64,000 bases of DNA, from positions 16,060,001 through 16,124,000 of the forward strand of contig NC_087245.1 of assembly GCF_037042905.1 (NCBI RefSeq), written 5' to 3'. The DNA comes from Lytechinus pictus. Its lineage: Eukaryota. A program made the translations under genes and the position numbers. The notes below the pieces were generated by a model. That model did no database searches, was not told the DNA's origin, and saw nothing but the letters and a program-made list of their open reading frames with translations. Positions 2,733 through 58,895 of this stretch are shown piece by piece (position 1 is the first letter of the stretch; each line of letters begins with the position of its first letter).

Positions 2733-3899
2733 ACTGCCATTCGTAAATCACTGTATACTGTACAGCAAATGAAATATTGGCATGTCAATATATGTAAATA
2801 TAAAATAAGAACATAAATGTCAAAAATATGACCATTAGAGTGTAAATATGGGCTCATACGTAATACATATAGGTAAGTGAATGTATGTTGAGAACATCAA
2901 GTAGTACAATTCTATTACAAATATTATATTGATACAACAGATGTTGTTGTTGTTGTTTTTTATCATGGTAGACGGGAGCATTTTTGTAGTACTAGCCAAC
3001 TGAGTAGAACTATTCGCTCTTATGTTCAAATTGATTAAAGCAAATCAGAATTAAGCATGATACATTAATATCAAAGTCATTCTCAACAGCACATGTAAAA
3101 CATGTTGCCAGACCAGATGTGCTGATACTAGCAATTTTGGGTCAGTTGCAATTAATCTGCAATCATAATCCTTTAAAGAGTTTGAAATAATAGTTATATA
3201 ACCAAAAACCCGAATCCCTCTAGGGTAAGTGCTTCATACTTCACATTATAAAATTGATTATAAGACGATTTGCTAATGTACTCAGAATGGGGCACATGTC
3301 TGTAATTTTGTGTCCAATTAAGAGTACAATATTTTTTTTATTTGCGGTATATTTATCTGATTCTCTCGCCTGATTATGATATATGTTAGAGTAATGCCAA
3401 CTTAGAACAATAGTAATACCTATAAGTGCATTTTCTAATATCAATGCAAAACTTCATTCTCACAGGTCATCTGTAATCACGTAGTCAATACCAGATCATG
3501 AATCATTTTGAAAATGCATATTTTTTTCGCTTGTTTAAATCCATGTCTTGTTGTCTTTTCAGTTTTGTCTGCTCATGAGTTATAATTCTGGCACAAGCTT
3601 ATTTTGAAGTGACCCTGAACGAGAATGATAAATTATGACTATCATAACACACATACAATGGCATTCAGTGAAATATACAATAATATTACACATTTGTGTC
3701 TACCAATTACCATATAATAATGCTTGCCTTTCGACAAATATGATTACAATTTACGATATACCATCGAGGAAGGTCTAAAATCCATGCTTTTGATTGGTCG
3801 AAATTGATTTCAGGTTAAAGGTTACAATAATGTAGTGCAGCAAACGATTTTTCATAAGAATCCTTGAATCCTTGAAAATAAAGGTTTTGAGTCCTACGA

Positions 3900-48102: not shown

Positions 48103-50193
48103 TTAAGTTCATAAACGCTATTACGCTATGATAATGGACAGTGTACCAGATTCTTGTTATTATTATTATTAGGTTGGAGAGGGGTAATAATTGTGTTATG
48201 CAGGGCCGCTTGTAGAGCAGTTTCCCAACTGAAGTGGCTACCCTGGGTAAATAAAACACTATTAATATTATTATTATCATTATTATTATTATTGTTCTTG
48301 TTATCATTAGTAGTATATAGTTGAAGTAGTATGATTTTACACACAAATGCTTACCCAAACAGTAATAAATAAATATTATTTCTATTAAAATTCTAGAAAT
48401 GGCTTTTTAAAATCAGTAGGGCCTATCAATATTTTCCTCAAACGGATGTTGCTTTAAGAAAACAAATGTTATTTCTATCGACGTTTTTTACCCCTTTGAT
48501 TTTTACTCTCATCTCTCCGTCTCTACCTCCACCTTTATCTCCTCCTTTCTCTCTCTGTCTTCCTCTCTTTCGCTCCTAATATCCCCCCTTTTTTTGCTAT
48601 CTTCCCCTCTCTCTTTCTCTTATACCATCTACAGGATAAAGAACGATATTAGGGGAGAGTATATAAATTAAAATCATAATTATAATTACAATGCTCACGA
48701 TTAGGATCATTAAGATAAAATAAATGATAACATCATTTTGACCTTTGCAATGTGGCTCAAAATAAAGTAATTACGAAATATACTCTGTTAAAAATGCATT
48801 AAATTAAATAATCATCAAAACCGTTCTCAATCATTTGATTGATTGCACAAACAATTTATTTTTCTACTTTTTTATACTCCCTATTTGTGTATCTGTTTTC
48901 TTTCTTGTCTGATGAAAAGGCGATATATAAATGAAATATATCATTTACAGCATAGCCTTGCCCATTCATAAATCTGGGCCAAAACAATGTGAACAATGAA
49001 TATATATATATACAATAGCTGATATATTAGCTGAGCTCCTCTAATTGGTTCGTGACCGAAGAAGAAAACTAATATCTCATTTCTAAAAGGAATACCATCC
49101 ACAGAAAAGAGCAATGAATTACACTATCGCTTGATTTTTACGCACGCTTTAACATTATCTATAATGTTTTTCCTAACCTTAGCTAATGATGGAGATAATG
49201 ATGTTGAACGCATTCAGTGGCGGTGCCATTGAATTTTGATAGAAGGCAACTTGAAGTAAACGTGATTTTATTTTTCATATATAGTTTATCATGTATTTCC
49301 CTGGCTCTCTCTCTTCTTTTATCTTTACTCGTGTTTGCTCCTTCTTCCCAATACCTGTCCCCTTACTCCTTTATTACCATTTGAAAATAGTAGATGTGTT
49401 CGTTATCCCACCCACCCCTTCCATTTCTTTGCCACCGTCTCGGTAGTATTATATTTAACAAGAAGTGAGAAGAAGAAAGGAATGAAGGTAGAAGGGCGAG
49501 TAAAAGTCAGATAGATATATAGAAGGTGGAAATGAAAAAATGGGGAAAATTAGCGAAAAGGATAAATGAAAATCATAGAAGGAGGAAAGGGGATGAAAGA
49601 GTGCAGAATTACTTCAAGCAGATTGTTTGAAGAAGATAGCTCTACATCCAGGGTGAATGTCAAATAAAAGCAATGAAGTCACACATGATGGGTATTACGA
49701 GCACAGTTCCATCATATCAAAGACACTTTAAATCTGTTTTCAAGTAACTACCATTGAGTAAAATAGACAAGTCACAATCATGACAATAGTTCTACGATAG
49801 AAGAGAAAAAATATTTACATAATGGTGCAACAGACATCATATACATTTCCGTAAACTGCCTCAAAATTTGATATTACTTTAAAACGACCTTCAAACTATC
49901 ATACCCAAATCCATTAAATTGCTATTCTATTCAACCGCGATTACATCTTCTTCATTATCTAGATAAACATTTGACAAGTTAGACATATACTTTAAATTCA
50001 TCAGATAACTGCTGATAATAAAATGCACATGTAAATATAAGTAGTTATGGGAGAGACCTCATACCTAATTGACCTTTGACCTTTGACCTTTGACCGCATG
50101 ACCTTTGACCCCAACTTCCGGTCACTGTTGACCCCGTGACCCCACCTTCCGGTCAATCATGACCTTTGACCTTTGGGTACGCGGTAAACAGGA

Positions 50194-50422
50194 AATTGGA
50201 TAATGAAGCGCGGGACGCGATTTTAATTGGATAATGACTCCGCGTGGGGACGCCATCTTAATTGGATAATGAAGCGCGGGACGCGATTTTAATTGGATAA
50301 TGAAGCGCGGGACGCGATTTTAATTGGATAATGACTCCGCGTGGGGACGCCATCTTAATTGGATAATGAAGCGCGGGACGCGATTTTAATTGGATAATGA
50401 CTCCGCGTGGGGACGCCATCTT
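50194..50422. repeat. Subterminal tandem array of 31-bp (A) and 35-bp (B) units, left arm (ABAABAB)
   Basis: A=AATTGGATAATGAAGCGCGGGACGCGATTTT; B=AATTGGATAATGACTCCGCGTGGGGACGCCATCTT. Confidence 0.95.
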
Positions 50423-51416
50423 AATTGGATATTCTAGGTCTTTAGTTTTACCGCCTTTTTGATCTATCCAGATGGTTAAGGATATGTCAACCGCCTCGCA
50501 TGACGTCACCGGCTACGTAAGCACCGTGATGTCATCCCAGGGAATTCCCCTTATCCCATCGTATCGGTATTGCACCACCGTGGCCAATCGTCACGTATAG
50601 GATACGATGCACGAAACAGACGTATGATTTCTACACAGTTTCCTATTGAAAAAATTATCTTTCTTTGCCTACCAGCAGATATGTCGAACCCGATATGTCA
50701 AGTGCCTCGCGGTTCACGAATCGATCACCCCACACACGACCAACGCCCGTCATTGAACTTGGGATATCCTATTCAAGGTGAAAGCCGGCTCTCTCTGTCT
50801 CTTATTACAACAATTATTGGTAATCCAACATGTGATTATAATCCTGATAACAGTGGCATCTCAAGCTCTACTCATTCCAGACTTTCCCCCATCAAAACTC
50901 TCTGACTTTTCCATACTGTTTTGTACATACCTCCATACTTTTCATTTTAACTCACATGACCTGCACGGCTCTCTGACCCGCAAAAGTATACTATATTGAA
51001 ACCCGTAGACGACTCCTTTCAATCAACTTCATTCATCCGCAGTACAGATGGTGATAACATGAAACACTATACAGTCAAGGATGATTCTTTATTATTACTA
51101 TCATTTATTCTATTCCATTTCAATGTAGATAGGTTCAATTAGTGTATAAACAGCAGATTTTGATACAAAGGTAAAAATAATGTAAGATATGTTCTCAAAT
51201 TACGTTGTCACAACAAAATAATTAACTGTTCATTGTTAATATTAAAGTGAAGTTCTCGTTTTTTTCTTTTCCTTCGCTTAACTTATTGGATTGTAACACA
51301 TGTCTATGGATGGCATTCAGAAAATATGAACACAATGAAGTTCAAACTGTCATTTATGCCCGCATTTATGTTGACGGCGTTTTCTTGGATTATTCGACAA
51401 GCTGATGTTTGTGCCT

Positions 51417-52067
51417 TTAGTTGTAGGTTCCATCTTCACCCTCCGTTTCTTCTCCACCATCATCATTATCGTCATCGTCACCTTGATACTGGAATAAACC
51501 ATCGAATTGTGAACCATGCCTGGCTAACACTCTCTGTACGGCTTTCCGGAATTCCATGCCATTCTCTAATCTTTCCGTGAGATCGGACACGATTTCATGA
51601 TTGATGTCAGCGTCTTCGAGGTACACGTTCTGCTGCAAGAACTGAGAGTACAGATCGAAAAAGATGCGTTTGACTGCCCACATTAGTTTCACGTGAGCCT
51701 TTGCTTTAGCGTCTTCTTCTTCCACTCCTTCTGAGATGTATTTCTGATATTTTTCGTCTCTCAAGTCCTTGGTGGCCGTCATGGCTTGCTCTAACCATCC
51801 TCGATAAGCGAGGTTGTCTTCAGTTTCTTCCATGTTTGCTGTCATTGACGATTCGTGTCCATCGCTTTCTGATACGCTCGTTTCGGAATCACCGTTGGAT
51901 TCTTCAACTCTTTGCATTTGAGAGGATGGGTCGGATTCTTCATCTTCACTCGTTTCTTCTCCAGTATCATGCTCAATTTGTTCATGCCTCTGCATGTTAT
52001 ATTTCCTACTAAAAGTTTTATCGCATCGTGAACAAGCGTAACGGTTGGACATATCCAATATATTCAT
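51417..52067 (-). CDS. Single C2H2 zinc-finger acidic protein, left-arm copy (216 aa from first ATG)
   Basis: YACSRCDKTFSRKYNMQRHEQIEH finger, Ser/Glu-rich linker, likely helical C-terminal region; frame open back to TTG at 52115; protein identical to right-arm copy. Confidence 0.8.
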   Translation of the reverse strand: MNILDMSNRYACSRCDKTFSRKYNMQRHEQIEHDTGEETSEDEESDPSSQMQRVEESNGDSETSVSESDGHESSMTANMEETEDNLAYRGWLEQAMTATKDLRDEKYQKYISEGVEEEDAKAKAHVKLMWAVKRIFFDLYSQFLQQNVYLEDADINHEIVSDLTERLENGMEFRKAVQRVLARHGSQFDGLFQYQGDDDDNDDGGEETEGEDGTYN

Positions 52068-52159
52068 GCTGACTCGATGATTATTTGTTGGGAAATGAAG
52101 AAAATTAACGTTCAAACTTGTAATTATACGTAATCATGAAACGCGCGCGAAGGTACTTT

Positions 52160-52979
52160 GATTCTTACGGATTTTTACGCATTCTTACGGATTCTTACTC
52201 ATTTTTACGGATTCTTACGGATGTTTACTCATTCTTACTCATTCTTACTCATTCTTACGGATTTTTTACGGATTCTTACGGATGTTTACGGATTCTTACG
52301 GATGTTTACGGATTCTTACGGATGTTTACGGATTCTTACGGATTCTTACTCATTCTTACGGATTCTTACTCATTCTTACGGATGTTTACGGATTTTTTAC
52401 GGATTCTTACTCATTCTTACTCATTCTTACGGATGTTTACGGATTTTTTACGGATTCTTACTCATTCTTACGGATTCTTACGGATTTTTTACGGATTCTT
52501 ACGGATTCTTAGGGATGTTTACGGATCCTTACGGACCCATGGATCCGTAAGGATCCGTAAACATCCCTAAGAATCCGTAAGAATCCGTAAACATCCGTAA
52601 GAATCCGTAAAAAATCCGTTAGAATCCGTAAGAATGAGTAAGAATCCGTAAAAAATCCGTAAACATCCGTAAGAATGAGTAAGAATCCGTAAGAATCCGT
52701 AAGAATGAGTAAGAATCCGTAAGAATGAGTAAGAATCCGTAAAAAATCCGTAAACATCCGTAAGAATGAGTAAGAATCCGTAAGAATGAGTAAGAATCCG
52801 TAAGAATCCGTAAACATCCGTAAGAATCCGTAAACATCCGTAAGAATCCGTAAACATCCGTAAGAATCCGTAAAAAATCCGTAAGAATGAGTAAGAATGA
52901 GTAAGAATGAGTAAACATCCGTAAGAATCCGTAAAAATGAGTAAGAATCCGTAAGAATGCGTAAAAATCCGTAAGAATC
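52160..52979. repeat. Central inverted array of ~10-bp units (GATTCTTACG and variants); symmetry axis 52539/52540
   Basis: 380 bp of units on the left, 440 bp of reverse-complement units on the right, meeting at ACGGACCCA|TGGATCCGT. Confidence 0.95.
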
Positions 52980-53071
52980 AAAGTACCTTCGCGCGCGTTT
53001 CATGATTACGTATAATTACAAGTTTGAACGTTAATTTTCTTCATTTCCCAACAAATAATCATCGAGTCAGC

Positions 53072-53722
53072 ATGAATATATTGGATATGTCCAACCGTTA
53101 CGCTTGTTCACGATGCGATAAAACTTTTAGTAGGAAATATAACATGCAGAGGCATGAACAAATTGAGCATGATACTGGAGAAGAAACGAGTGAAGATGAA
53201 GAATCCGACCCATCCTCTCAAATGCAAAGAGTTGAAGAATCCAACGGTGATTCCGAAACGAGCGTATCAGAAAGCGATGGACACGAATCGTCAATGACAG
53301 CAAACATGGAAGAAACTGAAGACAACCTCGCTTATCGAGGATGGTTAGAGCAAGCCATGACGGCCACCAAGGACTTGAGAGACGAAAAATATCAGAAATA
53401 CATCTCAGAAGGAGTGGAAGAAGAAGACGCTAAAGCAAAGGCTCACGTGAAACTAATGTGGGCAGTCAAACGCATCTTTTTCGATCTGTACTCTCAGTTC
53501 TTGCAGCAGAACGTGTACCTCGAAGACGCTGACATCAATCATGAAATCGTGTCCGATCTCACGGAAAGATTAGAGAATGGCATGGAATTCCGGAAAGCCG
53601 TACAGAGAGTGTTAGCCAGGCATGGTTCACAATTCGATGGTTTATTCCAGTATCAAGGTGACGATGACGATAATGATGATGGTGGAGAAGAAACGGAGGG
53701 TGAAGATGGAACCTACAACTAA
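53072..53722 (+). CDS. Single C2H2 zinc-finger acidic protein, right-arm copy (216 aa from first ATG)
   Basis: Intact ORF mirroring 51417-52067; TATAAT at 53011 upstream; AATAAA at 54030 and 54046 downstream. Confidence 0.8.
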   Translation: MNILDMSNRYACSRCDKTFSRKYNMQRHEQIEHDTGEETSEDEESDPSSQMQRVEESNGDSETSVSESDGHESSMTANMEETEDNLAYRGWLEQAMTATKDLRDEKYQKYISEGVEEEDAKAKAHVKLMWAVKRIFFDLYSQFLQQNVYLEDADINHEIVSDLTERLENGMEFRKAVQRVLARHGSQFDGLFQYQGDDDDNDDGGEETEGEDGTYN

Positions 53723-54716
53723 AGGCACAAACATCAGCTTGTCGAATAATCCAAGAAAACGCCGTCAACATAAATGCGGGCATAAATGACAGTTTGAACT
53801 TCATTGTGTTCATATTTTCTGAATGCCATCCATAGACATGTGTTACAATCCAATAAGTTAAGCGAAGGAAAAGAAAAAAACGAGAACTTCACTTTAATAT
53901 TAACAATGAACAGTTAATTATTTTGTTGTGACAACGTAATTTGAGAACATATCTTACATTATTTTTACCTTTGTATCAAAATCTGCTGTTTATACACTAA
54001 TTGAACCTATCTACATTGAAATGGAATAGAATAAATGATAGTAATAATAAAGAATCATCCTTGACTGTATAGTGTTTCATGTTATCACCATCTGTACTGC
54101 GGATGAATGAAGTTGATTGAAAGGAGTCGTCTACGGGTTTCAATATAGTATACTTTTGCGGGTCAGAGAGCCGTGCAGGTCATGTGAGTTAAAATGAAAA
54201 GTATGGAGGTATGTACAAAACAGTATGGAAAAGTCAGAGAGTTTTGATGGGGGAAAGTCTGGAATGAGTAGAGCTTGAGATGCCACTGTTATCAGGATTA
54301 TAATCACATGTTGGATTACCAATAATTGTTGTAATAAGAGACAGAGAGAGCCGGCTTTCACCTTGAATAGGATATCCCAAGTTCAATGACGGGCGTTGGT
54401 CGTGAGTGGGGTGATCGATTCGTGAACCGCGAGGCACTTGACATATCGGGTTCGACATATCTGCTGGTAGGCAAAGAAAGATAATTTTTTCAATAGGAAA
54501 CTGTGTAGAAATCATACGTCTGTTTCGTGCATCGTATCCTATACGTGACGATTGGCCACGGTGGTGCAATACCGATACGATGGGATAAGGGGAATTCCCT
54601 GGGATGACATCACGGTGCTTACGTAGCCGGTGACGTCATGCGAGGCGGTTGACATATCCTTAACCATCTGGATAGATCAAAAAGGCGGTAAAACTAAAGA
54701 CCTAGAATATCCAATT

Positions 54717-55011
54717 AAGATGGCGTCCCCACGCGGAGTCATTATCCAATTAAAATCGCGTCCCGCGCTTCATTATCCAATTAAGATGGCGTCCCCACGC
54801 GGAGTCATTATCCAATTAAAATCGCGTCCCGCGCTTCATTATCCAATTAAGATGGCGTCCCCACGCGGAGTCATTATCCAATTAAAATCGCGTCCCGCGC
54901 TTCATTATCCAATTAAAATCGCGTCCCGCGCTTCATTATCCAATTAAGATGGCGTCCCCACGCGGAGTCATTATCCAATTAAAATCGCGTCCCGCGCTTC
55001 ATTATCCAATT
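54717..55011. repeat. Subterminal 31/35-bp array, right arm (one extra AB pair)
   Basis: Reverse complement of 50194-50422 plus 66 bp. Confidence 0.95.
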
Positions 55012-55841
55012 TCCTGTTTACCGCGTACCCAAAGGTCAAAGGTCATGATTGACCGGAAGGTGGGGTCACGGGGTCAACAGTGACCGGAAGTTGGGGTCAA
55101 AGGTCATGCGGTCAAAGGTCAAAGGTCAAAGGTCAATTAGGTATGAGGTCTCTCCCATAACTACTAATATATATACATATTTAAATTACAACAACAATCT
55201 TAGATTTTTTCATAATCATATAGGAAACTTTCTTAATTATACTATAAAAAGAATAATAAATCAGATTGTATTCAATAATATATACACACTTCTTTTGCTT
55301 CCGACATGATAATGTAAATAATTAATTCAAAAGTTATGGCATTTTCGGATCTCCATGCATTAAACAACAAATGTTTTAACCATTTCAGTGTGTCTCATAG
55401 AAAGGGAATCTTGCGTAGGTGTCTCCCGGGCTCTAAGAAATACTTCTTAACGTTGTTATGTTAGAAATAAGATATTATTTACACACATATAACGATAACG
55501 GACAAAATAACAAACTATTACTTTAGTGCTGGATAGTAATAATGATAATGATAATAACAAGATATAATTATAATCAACTACAAGAAAAAAATGGTAATAT
55601 GCTGTTACGGGGGGGGGGGGGTCGTTAATCAAGAGAGCAGGTTTAACTGGTAAAAAAATCACGGAGAAACCAGTAATAAATTTCTACAATGAGTGTTATG
55701 ATGATTAGATCTTGTCAAGATTGGGGGTAATTAATAAGCGTAAGTTTTACGTTGCCCAATCCAGATGAATGAGTTTAATTCAAGACAATATTAGATACAC
55801 AAGAGCTAAGGAACGGTAATCTCGTGTAATGTCTTGTCGAG

Positions 55842-56888
55842 TTAAATGTTAGTCATCGTCTCACGCCTCTCAGCGTTATCATCCCCGCTTTCGTTTTGAT
55901 CAAATATCGGCGAAGAGGTGCTTGCGATATTACAGTTAAAAACTTGCTTAAGGGCGGAGCGGAATTCCGGAAACCAGGCAACATATATGATAGGGTTGAG
56001 GCAGGAGTTATACGCCGTTAGAACAATTACGAACGTGTGGAAGGTACTGCCAATGAAGGTTGGCGGAATCGCCCCTACTGAATAAAGGAAAAAGACGATT
56101 TGTCCTGGTCCCCAACAGATGATGTACACCAGGATAACAATCAACATCAGTTGTAGGACACGGTTACGAGCTTTGACGTGGAAGGAAACACCCTTCTTGG
56201 GACCGTAACGAGCCGAACGAAGATGGAGACTTCTCGCAATGAGAATCTGAGTAGTGAGCATAACGACAGTGGGTAGGATAAGACGGTAAATCAAATAAAA
56301 CACTCCTGTTACAACCTGACTCCCTGTGGATGCATAGTCAAGAATGCACTTGTGAGATCCAGGATCCACTGTTACAACGGTCATGACGAATATGAAGTAA
56401 ACACTGAACGTACTGAACCAGATGAACACCAGGATGGCTGGGAGGAGTCCTCTACGAGTTACAAGACGACCGTAGACTAACGGGTAAACAACCGCCATGT
56501 ACCGTTCAATAGATATGGCCATCAGGATATAGATAGATGAAGTGAAGCATACAAACAGGAACAGTCCAGGCAACACCATCTTGCAATAGATCTCTCCCAT
56601 TATGGAGGACGGAACCGTTTTTGCTCCGGGCAAAGGGATAATGAATATGGATGTCAGAAAATCGGCTAAGGCCAAGGCACCAATCAGCCTGTCGGTAGAA
56701 CGAGTGGATGCTCGCCGTTTCCAGAGAGCGAGCAAGACGAGCAAGTTCCCGATGATACCCAGAACAGCAGAAATAAGGTGCATCATGTCAGACCATGTCG
56801 ACAAGAATGGCTTCCAGGACCATCCTACATCAGTAGCCATATCAACATTCGTTATCATGACTGCAGTATCCGTAGCGTTTGACGACAT
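55842..56888 (-). CDS. Intronless rhodopsin-family (class A) GPCR, 348 aa
   Basis: Seven hydrophobic segments; GN in TM1, LALAD, ERY, CWGP and NPIIY motifs; extracellular Cys pair; N-terminal NAT sequon. Confidence 0.95.
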   Translation of the reverse strand: MSSNATDTAVMITNVDMATDVGWSWKPFLSTWSDMMHLISAVLGIIGNLLVLLALWKRRASTRSTDRLIGALALADFLTSIFIIPLPGAKTVPSSIMGEIYCKMVLPGLFLFVCFTSSIYILMAISIERYMAVVYPLVYGRLVTRRGLLPAILVFIWFSTFSVYFIFVMTVVTVDPGSHKCILDYASTGSQVVTGVFYLIYRLILPTVVMLTTQILIARSLHLRSARYGPKKGVSFHVKARNRVLQLMLIVILVYIICWGPGQIVFFLYSVGAIPPTFIGSTFHTFVIVLTAYNSCLNPIIYVAWFPEFRSALKQVFNCNIASTSSPIFDQNESGDDNAERRETMTNI

Positions 56889-58895
56889 TCTCAGAAAGTG
56901 TTGTGTTCGACTGATGTCCTGATGTACCTTTTAACCAAACAAAGTTATAATAATTCTGTCTCCTCGTTATATACAACATAAAATGTGAAGGTATCACCAG
57001 TAAGATTTTGTATGATTGAGCACTTAATTAAAGGCATTCAGATTTGTCTAAAAACAATCTGTTGAGCTCAGGTGAGAGTATATTGTAGGAACTGTCATAT
57101 TATACACAGTCGTTGTAATCGTGTTGAATAAAGCTAACTCATCTAAAGTGCGTTTGTTCGGATGCGACATAATTTTCCCGACGCTGTAAAGTGAGGATCC
57201 GATTTTAGAAAGTCTTCTTTCATAAAGGAAGATGAATAGCGTTCAAGTGATGCAAGGTCGATTGTTTCATCCTATTTGCATGAATGACATTGAAAACAAA
57301 TGGGAAAGGGTGACAATCACCATGATCAACGAATCATTTGGCAGGCCAGCTATATGCTAAATAGGCCTATATTCTGTTCATTGGTTTCAAAGATTTTGAA
57401 ATGCATAATTAATAAAAAGGCTAGAAGCATGACATTCATATCAGTTTTAACTATTCAGGATAATACGGACAAGTTACTTCCGTGCGAGTGCGTTGGGAGC
57501 GTTCGCCGAAATATAAGGAGGCGTGTGGGTAAAGGCATATGAGTTTGGGGTATGTGTGTGTGGGGGTGTAGGTGGGTATGCGTGTATGGAGGTGCACACG
57601 TACATGTTTGAGTTGAACATGAGGGAAGGAGTTCGAAAAGGAAGCTGCAAAATTTCTGTTTCGTTATGCTTTATGATATTAAGTGTGCCTAATGATAGGT
57701 CTAAATCAATTGCAAAGGTGAAATCACTTTTAATAAGCTTTTGAAAAATGCATTTTTTTATATGCATTCTTTTAAAATGCATTTATGAACCAGCTGCTCA
57801 CATGTGACGTCACAGAATGAAAAATTGTAGAAATTCATTACTTATTCTTGTTAAGATCGGGTCAATCTTTCAAACAATAGTGGCGGTGATCTATCTTTAA
57901 AAATATGTTTATCTGCACAAAATAAATCCTACAATTCCATATAGTATGTTCTAATGTTCTAATCACATTATCTATTGGCAGGTGAACATTATTCTTTTTC
58001 TCTCTTTTTTTCTTTTATCATTGCATTTTGCAACGCCTTGGGCTTTTAATGAAAGTGAAAAAAATGATACAACGCGGTGTAATATCTCTGTTATTACTTT
58101 TTTCGTGGTCATAGGCATTTAGGTGTTCAAAAAAGGACGATTATGATTGTATGACAAGATAAATCAGTCAGAGAAGTTAGATTGATTCATGTGGAGAACT
58201 TTCTTTTGTAAAAGTTTATTTCTATTTATCATGCTTGCATAAATATAAAATTGGGTGACCATCTATAGTGTGAACCCCTCCCCTCTTTCACATACACACA
58301 CACTCACCCACACATTCACTCACTGACAGCAAATGCGTACAGTATGCTGCGGATTTTATTACTTTAATTACCATCTGAGTTTCAAGTATATCATGTTAAA
58401 GTTGTTACCAGAAGTAGTAATAGTGTTTGAAGATTTTTCCGGAGATATACTGTCCGTTTCAAAACGGTTCGAGGTAGAAATAACAATTAACTTTCGAAAT
58501 AAATCTATTATGATCGACCTATTTTTCCTCTGTTGAACAAAATTTCAATGAGGGAAATATTAATTGCGTTAGCTGCTGGGAATTATCCTTGAAATGATCT
58601 CTCAAAACAGTGTGCGGGAATCGATAAATCCATAATCATCATCCCACACCAAGAAAGATTAGTGACATGTAAAAGATAATATTGCCATCCTCTGAATGAT
58701 CAGGGCATCTTATCGGTCATTTTGATAATTATTACTTAGTAAGCATCGTAACTCCCATTAGCTATATCGTGCTTAACACGACATTGCCGTTTCCAACTTG
58801 TTCCTACGTGCTACATAGTGACCTATCTAATTACAGATTAAACTTACATCCGTCAGCATCTGATGCTTGAGCAATCATCTTTGCATCTCACAGCG

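Follow-up and report, generated by a model that had tools for sequence, protein, structure and literature searches.

Structure of the palindromic element

The window analysed here is a stretch of 64,000 nt of Lytechinus pictus DNA (contig NC_087245.1, positions 16,060,001 to 16,124,000 of the forward strand). Between positions 50040 and 55165 it contains a palindromic element of 5,126 bp with the ends of a Polinton/Maverick and a small zinc-finger gene in each arm (Table 1). An earlier note on this DNA, made from the sequence alone, had described an inverted repeat of 2,500 + 2,626 bp, which was reproduced exactly when the arms were aligned. In a global alignment, the left arm (50040-52539, 2,500 nt) and the reverse complement of the right arm (52540-55165, 2,626 nt) showed 2,497 matches and 3 mismatches. 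Three indels were present, every one of them extra DNA in the right arm and all in tandem repeats: 66 bp in the 31/35-bp subterminal repeats, and 40 and 20 bp in a 10-bp satellite. An inverted-repeat search returned one pair of arms at 50278-52448 and 52691-54861 (2,171 nt, scored as 100%) and a second at 50032-50431 and 54774-55173 (400 nt). The palindrome is far beyond chance, given arms of 2.5 kb with 99.9% identity and an architecture that is repeated at many loci.

The element starts with AGTAGT, ends with ACTACT and has the hexamer AATATA on both sides, six being the sole duplication length that fitted. These ends, and the hexamers in unrelated DNA, had been named in the earlier note and were read in the sequence as described; each flank was single-copy over 500 bp in a genome search. 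The same search, with 500 bp per side, found no paralogous empty site. The axis of the palindrome, between 52539 and 52540, lies inside an array of about 880 bp built of 10-bp units with a consensus of about TTACGGATTC. The two sides of this array were merely 76-92% complementary in gapless alignments, so that mirror symmetry is approximate there; at the axis proper, the mirror match spans 52 nt with no more than 3 mismatches.

Each arm carries its own TATA-like box, an open reading frame (ORF) of 216 aa and an AATAAA signal, and is read outward from the central satellite. The two 216-aa copies are the only ORFs of at least 200 aa in the element. A Pfam search of these ORFs matched a zinc finger only, with no B-family DNA polymerase (PolB) and no rve integrase, and no transposase was found in the ORF list or by Pfam.

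A mobile family with individual target-site duplications

The genome (812 Mb in 368 contigs) was searched for relatives of the element. One arm used as the query gave 99 matches among the best 40 of 259 candidates, nearly always as + / - pairs. A 26-nt pattern of the terminus, with up to 3 mismatches allowed, matched 50 times forward and 50 times reverse, against 0 + 0 for the reversed control, and by our own count about 35 of the +/- terminus pairs are spaced 2.6-7.4 kb apart. Target-site duplications (TSDs) were surveyed at 28 loci, 25 of which had both ends (L022 and L028 had neither, and L025 had one end fitting the pattern). Perfect 6-bp TSDs were present in 23 of these 25 copies, all different and with no evident consensus. 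Most copies of the family are full palindromes with two genes and share a common axis structure. Other palindromic copies with different TSDs and the same axis, which the earlier note had proposed to look for, are therefore present, and its concern that a single copy would reduce the element to a one-off rearrangement is dispelled by the roughly 35 terminus pairs across the genome.

The family also contains forms with a single gene, namely L043 (2.9 kb), L046 (3.1 kb), L045 (3.9 kb) and L040 (4.1 kb), with terminal inverted repeats (TIRs) of 0.4-1 kb and a TSD of their own in each case. L043 and L040, whose axis regions were read, look like palindromes from which one arm has largely been deleted, and one of the breakpoints lies next to the axis. 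The palindrome is therefore probably the older state, and the monomers, as well as the spacer-less centre of the window copy, would be deletions. The existence of monomers (L043, L046, L045) could also suggest that two of them had inserted back to back at one site, or that palindromic reads had been misassembled. We regard this as extremely improbable: the axis contains neither termini nor a copy of a target site, the layout recurs, each time with its own TSD, at about 35 loci spread over many contigs, and the monomers look like one-sided deletions ending beside the axis. Double insertion is thus contradicted by the axis structure together with the individual TSDs, and an assembly artefact is ruled out by independent copies with different 6-bp duplications. 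A palindrome of host genes was also considered; the shared Maverick ends speak against it, as do the separate TSDs of the copies and the lack of termini at the axis.

Two of the loci, L025 (C5:41108400-41115900) and L026 (C5:41083000-41090600), lie 25 kb apart and have four identical arms and the same internal layout; they are probably a segmental duplication that included the element.

A 17.2-kb Maverick with the same ends

One pair of termini was 17.2 kb apart and delimited an element of 17,227 bp (C21:5789358-5806584), hereafter the helper, with the TSD GATCCA and 420-bp TIRs at 94% identity. It encodes a DNA_pol_B_2 polymerase (99 bits, E 3.8e-28), an rve integrase (42.5 bits, E 8.3e-11) with a sub-threshold chromodomain, and a Pox_A32 ATPase (34 bits, E 2.8e-8), and has a weak adenovirus-protease-like match (E 0.04). 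Two further loci have PolB sequences 97% and 94-96% identical to that of the helper, with the same type of terminus at a matching distance. The (AGT)2//(ACT)2 end motif and perfect 6-bp TSDs have been described for vertebrate Mavericks (PMC8097293). The palindrome and the helper share only their first 400-475 bp or so, at 88-90% identity, and in the alignment the first 160 nt or so are almost identical, including the TGACCTTTGACC runs. The Polinton/Maverick link of the palindrome, for which the earlier note had relied on the ends and the 6-bp TSD, can be taken as real, because the 17.2-kb element sharing these ends encodes PolB, rve integrase and A32 ATPase. The note had further proposed to look for a full-length Polinton colinear with the arm; colinearity was found for the terminal 400-475 bp or so and not for the arm interior, which is not in the helper.

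A 6.4-kb member of the family (L049+L039, C18:5541928-5548315, TSD ATCATA) has had one arm swapped for other DNA, which includes 67 + 265 bp of the PolB region of the helper. The replacement DNA also has a 246-aa ORF that belongs to no Pfam family (best E 0.033). The PolB pieces are a direct trace of recombination with the helper.

What would be expected of non-autonomous derivatives was thus found, that is, terminal sequence in common with an autonomous element of the same genome, and insertion at many unrelated sites with individual TSDs. From the shared ends and the shared TSD length, and solely from these, we infer that the enzymes of the helper mobilise the palindromes. The window element is probably one of many copies in a young family of non-autonomous Maverick/Polinton derivatives.

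The 216-aa gene and its homology to Maverick packaging ATPases

The gene is well preserved in the family: 42 of 47 arms have an ORF of 215-216 aa, and shorter ORFs were read in five, namely both arms of L034, the left arm of L024, and L045 and L046. The most diverged alleles differ by 11 synonymous changes per 124 sites and 15-17 non-synonymous changes per 524, a ratio of non-synonymous to synonymous change (pN/pS) of 0.3-0.4 from small counts. Closer alleles have 0 synonymous changes in the ORF though the arms differ by up to 3%, which may reflect recombination between subfamilies. Relatives that are 41-75% identical keep the C2H2 finger and the helical domain. An AlphaFold2 model of the protein had a mean pLDDT of 57.4, with helices at residues 86-192 reaching 74-84, and a Foldseek search of the PDB with this model gave no match at E <= 0.001. 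There was no usable match in the protein atlas and no relative among the IMG/VR viral contigs.

A profile search of 1.84 billion representatives returned 229 proteins at E <= 1e-10, three of which were longer. One of these, P0114, has an A32-type ATPase part that shares 38% identity with the ATPase of the helper (E 3e-41); behind it lie a finger and a helical tail, which match the window protein at 28% identity (BLASTP E 8e-12). P0094 has the same order of parts with an extra finger at its start (ATPase part E 6e-29, tail E 4e-10), and P0097 is the C-terminal part of such an ATPase-tail protein. Relatives of P0114 are numerous and mostly 400-580 aa long, the named ones being from bivalve molluscs, and some of their gene models continue into an integrase or a chromodomain. 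When the stand-alone family was compared by hhalign with the region behind the ATPase core, finger, linker and helices were aligned with a probability of 99.8% (E 4.3e-29), and the alignment was confined to columns 293-469 of the ATPase profile, behind the core. Pfam gave no Pox_A32 match in the 216-aa protein itself. In all likelihood, therefore, the protein is a free-standing form of the finger and helical tail that other Mavericks carry as part of their packaging ATPase, and its homology to that tail would make it viral in origin. The earlier note had stated that none of the typical Maverick genes it named is present in the palindrome; this stands for PolB and integrase, which were not found, and has to be amended for the 216-aa ORF, which is homologous to the C-terminal module of the packaging ATPase.

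Several public gene models that contain relatives of the gene are fused or oddly named (P0012, P0015 and P0164-P0166, with names such as sialyltransferase-like, hydroxylysine kinase-like and 'U3 small nucleolar RNA-associated protein 25-like'); these names are probably annotation artefacts caused by element insertions and by the acidic linker.

The same two parts were looked for in this genome with P0114 as the query. Among the best 98 of 247 candidates, matches to the ATPase part were confined to the core and lay in open frames no longer than 264 aa, those to the module part were confined to the module, and no Maverick ATPase with a finger/helical tail was seen. No trace of the module was found in the helper by tblastn and two profile comparisons. 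Such a split could mean that palindromes and 17-kb Mavericks depend on each other as the two obligate halves of a single system, in which a packaging-specificity module left the ATPase gene and now lives only on the palindromes, so that the helper would need its 'satellite' as much as the reverse. The separate core-only and module-only matches and the untraceable module in the helper agree with this, and the fusion of module and ATPase in many other animals is a classic hint of a functional link. On the other side, short tail-less ATPases (264-322 aa) are also among the listed relatives, and the tail may hence be optional. We consider obligate halves rather unlikely and prefer a dependent, non-autonomous derivative.

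The origin of the gene bears equally on whether the element could be a foldback transposon of an unrelated cut-and-paste superfamily with ends that are merely Maverick-like. Foldback transposons, such as the FB elements of Drosophila and the TU elements of sea urchins, are similar to the palindrome in having very long inverted repeats with tandem sub-repeats and little or no unique centre, and inverted repeats partly made of tandem sub-repeats are typical of them. The palindrome differs in its Maverick ends and TSD (those of FB are 9 bp and those of TU 8 bp) and in a protein gene of viral origin in each arm. Over more than 400 bp it is 88-93% identical to the TIRs of PolB-, integrase- and ATPase-encoding elements, its TSD has the length of a Maverick TSD, and its gene is of Maverick origin. 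An unrelated foldback transposon is therefore highly improbable, being contradicted by the shared Maverick TIRs, the helper genes and the homology to the ATPase tail. Tetris is a further foldback example (PMC4079207).

Axis structure and concerted evolution of the arms

The axis of most copies consists of a short hairpin (arms of about 19 nt), a 41-bp segment beside the hairpin on one side only, and satellite on both sides. The hairpin is absent from three copies, L021, L037 and the window copy, the last of which also lacks the 41-bp segment. The spacer-less axis of the window copy thus appears to be derived, by loss of hairpin and 41-bp segment. The earlier description of the palindrome as having no spacer holds loosely and for the window copy only, where the axis lies in the imperfect array of about 880 bp; most copies have the hairpin and the 41-bp segment.

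The two arms of one copy are much closer to each other than to the arms of other copies. In 20 of the 21 copies compared, the two arms had 0-3 substitutions between them over about 1.37 kb of unique arm sequence. The distance to the nearest other copy, by contrast, reaches 20 substitutions for L036, 24-25 for L048 and 39-50 for L047. The diverged lineages L036 and L047 have the same axis hairpin and 41-bp asymmetry. Since this axis is shared, the palindrome predates the split of the lineages, and since the arms within each copy are nearly identical all the same, changes must have been copied from arm to arm, so that the arms of one copy evolve in concert. The exception was L037 (C8:2329368-2334366), whose arms are unlike (23 substitutions, 9 gaps) and belong to different sublineages inside a perfect TSD, TTTATT; it is likely a chimera, or recombinant, of two elements.

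The persistence of the asymmetry argues against repeated full copy-back and fits correction between paired arms, whether in a snap-back hairpin or by chromosomal gene conversion. The earlier note had proposed that one Polinton end was copied back on itself. The shared ends agree with that proposal; the interior, which is not colinear with the helper, does not, and the 41-bp asymmetry argues against simple copy-back as a repeated event.

The asymmetry is also a point in favour of another route, in which the element moves by integrase only, as cut or copied duplex DNA, and its arms are equalised by chromosomal gene conversion, with no snap-back or protein-primed intermediate. The gene would then be a transcription factor that serves its own expression and nothing else. 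Persistence of the 41-bp asymmetry in diverged lineages is a better fit to arm-to-arm conversion than to repeated copy-back, and a short CCGTA repeat lies upstream of the gene in both subfamilies (see below). Against this route, the (AGT)2 repeat and the entire origin-like terminal 160 nt are conserved with the helper, and both the pieces of the PolB region in one member and the chimeric arms in one copy would suit replicative template switching. We judge movement by integrase only to be the less likely route, and we favour a palindrome that is also replicated from its ends.

Related subfamilies

With P0010, a relative about 53% identical, as the query, several deeper subfamilies were detected among the best 150 of 372 candidates, mostly as divergent - / + gene pairs 0.7-1.7 kb apart; examples are the pairs at C14:13691413/13692598 and C6:24554712/24555931. 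One such pair (C18:24400488/24401907) was read over C18:24397800-24405200 and proved to be a palindrome as well, with arms of at least 3,548 bp at 99.7% identity that run to the edges of the stretch, and a 250-bp loop. It is multi-copy, and its DNA similarity to the window element is limited to the conserved part of the gene. The protein of this second subfamily is about half identical to the window protein, and its layout is likewise palindromic.

Short repeats with a CCGTA core are located just upstream of the gene in both subfamilies, as about 40 ten-bp units per arm in the window element (52140-52990) and as three 11-bp units in the other (L050:2642-2674 and 3188-3220). They are possibly a shared binding site.

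A cluster at C17:8136554-8180115 contains at least 22 copies of the zinc-finger gene in alternating orientation, with regular spacing and equal scores. Paired gene starts are about 1.5 kb apart and the pairs recur every 4.1 kb or so, which makes the cluster a tandem array of palindromic units. None of the matches to the terminus pattern fell inside this array.

Transcription and other features of the locus

Contigs of run X1, whose RNA nature is a guess, cover only 53080-54126 of the right arm, at a depth of 65-267, leaving the promoter side and 54190-54435 uncovered. Depth is zero at 52960-53041 and starts at 53042. In raw RNA reads of three runs, the ORF was covered at low depth in both orientations, and no reads were found in the flank of the element. 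These reads were deepest over the 31/35-bp repeats (54682-55009), up to about 12-14 fold in two runs; their loose ends point to other copies, and the same repeats occur in the helper TIR. The transcripts apparently come from members of the family and not specifically from the window copy. Among possible control sequences, the TGACCTTTGACC runs resemble direct-repeat nuclear-receptor sites and CTTCCGG resembles an ETS site.

The positions of the features are collected in Table 1. An intronless ORF of 362 aa for a rhodopsin-type receptor (7tm_1, E 6.4e-42) occupies 55842-56930 on the reverse strand, and the palindrome lies about 680 bp past its stop codon.

Table 1. Features of the palindromic element and its insertion site (window positions)
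Feature	Positions	Strand	Basis
Left TSD copy AATATA	50034-50039	.	Identical to 55166-55171
Whole palindromic non-autonomous element with Maverick/Polinton ends	50040-55165	.	Arm alignment, family copies
Left terminus: (AGT)2 start, conserved GACCTCAT box, TGACCTTTGACC runs, two CTTCCGGTCA boxes	50040-50193	+	Near-identical in the 17.2-kb Polinton
Left subterminal array of alternating 31-/35-bp repeats, also in Polinton TIR	50194-50431	+	Repeat search; BLAST of element 155-392 to both Polinton TIRs
AATAAA of left gene copy	51104-51109	-	Mirror of 54030-54035
Left 216-aa gene: C2H2 zinc finger, acidic linker, helical domain, acidic tail	51417-52067	-	Pfam zf-C2H2 E 2e-5
TATA-like box of left gene copy	52121-52128	-	Mirror of 53011-53018
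Central 10-bp array, about TTACGGATTC on the left, complement on the right	52140-52990	.	Repeat families; axis 52539/52540
TATA-like box TATAATTA of right gene copy	53011-53018	+	24-31 nt upstream of where RNA reads/contigs start
Right 216-aa zinc-finger/helical gene copy	53072-53722	+	BLASTP and hhalign to C-terminal module of long Maverick ATPases
AATAAA of right gene copy	54030-54035	+	Run X1 contigs end at 54075 and 54126
Right subterminal 31/35-bp array, 66 bp longer than the left array	54673-55011	-	Repeat search, indel
Right terminus, mirror of 50040-50193, ends ACTACT	55012-55165	-	Sequence
Right TSD copy AATATA	55166-55171	.	Sequence

Discussion

Taken as a whole, the observations are best explained by a non-autonomous Maverick derivative that is served by a helper in trans, carries a gene for an ATPase tail and has its arms corrected against each other; we give this explanation a probability of roughly 0.8. 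The element would have retained the terminal 400 bp or so of its helper, with the (AGT)2 end, the TGACCTTTGACC runs and the 31/35-bp subterminal repeats, and its inverted repeats would have grown to span almost the entire element. Protein-primed PolB of the related 17-kb Mavericks would replicate it in trans from both identical ends, and the rve integrase of the helper would insert it, leaving the 6-bp duplications. The displaced, self-complementary strand could fold into a hairpin, whose end distal to the tip would rebuild a duplex origin without need of the long-range panhandle that is discussed in PMC11886824. Such folding would favour elements that are palindromic, and correction from arm to arm would keep both arms of a copy alike. 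The 216-aa protein would most likely recognise DNA for packaging or replication of the element.

Several observations count against this explanation. In 2 of the 25 copies with both ends (L031 and L044), the TSDs do not match. The copy of the helper that was examined has a PolB region split over three reading frames (273 + 510 + 683 aa) and so may itself be broken. The interior of the palindrome arm was not found in the helper by BLAST, tblastn or two profile comparisons, which leaves the route from Maverick to palindrome untraced. The zinc finger barely reached the Pfam cut-off (score 25.2 against 25.2, E 2e-5), and beyond its helices the protein was modelled poorly. The RNA signal belongs to the family at large, is shallow and is found in both orientations, and it comes partly from run X1, which is RNA by guess. 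Finally, the unlike arms of L037 inside a perfect TSD imply that arms are not equalised at every insertion.

Compared with known systems, the palindrome resembles autonomous Polintons/Mavericks, with which it has in common the (AGT)2//(ACT)2 ends, the 6-bp TSDs and the long TIRs (PMC8097293, PMC3014272, PMC10748475), as well as TIR sequence shared with an element of the same genome that encodes PolB, integrase and ATPase. It differs from them in size, 5 kb against 13-25 kb (PMC10748475), in having no PolB, integrase, capsid or protease genes, and in TIRs that span nearly the entire element; its sole gene is a free-standing copy of the ATPase tail. The long packaging ATPases of Mavericks, with named members from Mytilus, Pinctada, Pecten, Mya, Mercenaria and others, have the same finger, acidic linker and helical domain; the 216-aa protein is without the ATPase core, and its gene lies on a non-autonomous palindrome instead of in a Maverick.

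Snap-back or copy-back defective viral genomes are likewise subgenomic and self-complementary and keep the replication ends of their parent. Incomplete adenovirus genomes with inverted left ends, and symmetrical minichromosomes with hairpin intermediates, provide a parallel. The snapback genomes of adeno-associated virus are another (PMC8235507). Unlike these genomes, the palindromes described here are heritable, are integrated with TSDs in diversified subfamilies, contain a conserved gene and mostly show a small conserved asymmetry at their axis. Transpovirons, too, are small linear DNAs with TIRs and few genes, among them one for a stand-alone zinc-binding protein, and they rely on a larger virus (PMC3671162). 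Their helpers are giant viruses of amoebae, their other genes are different and their body is not palindromic. No sequence relation to transpovirons was found. The palindrome looks like a real, unusual form that would work in the manner of a snap-back defective genome or satellite, but is heritable, diversified and gene-bearing.

In the literature searched, we found nothing that links Polintons/Mavericks to palindromic, foldback, snap-back or defective-interfering derivatives, although a curated repeat-database entry may exist, and no report of a zinc-finger tail on a Polinton/Maverick ATPase. Non-autonomous relatives of Mavericks are hardly described in that literature. Mavericks/Polintons are viewed as ancestors of many eukaryotic DNA viruses, and to our knowledge their replication, packaging and even virions have never been directly observed.

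A more far-reaching idea is that of two-part, virus-like systems. A 17-kb part would supply the enzymes and a tail-less ATPase, while heritable palindromic parts would carry the DNA-recognition tail of the ATPase twice, control which DNA is packaged, and keep their arms identical by way of protein-primed hairpins. We put this forward as a speculation with a small chance of being correct. If it were true, the palindromic layout, which is also present in the subfamily with an approximately half-identical protein, would be a general strategy of Maverick satellites that has so far gone undescribed.

The palindromes as described here, non-autonomous and dependent on a helper, already bear on the biology of Mavericks. 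The cis-acting DNA that a Maverick requires is narrowed by them to the 400 bp or so common to helper and palindrome. The split and fused arrangements, a short ATPase and a free tail here and the fused protein in bivalves, point to a part of the packaging enzyme that may read DNA. The palindromes would also be a natural, heritable analogue of snap-back defective genomes with concerted arms, and hence a test case for models of hairpin replication and palindrome stability. For the sea urchin genomes, small 'uncharacterised' zinc-finger genes that have been annotated in them would have their origin in viral transposons.

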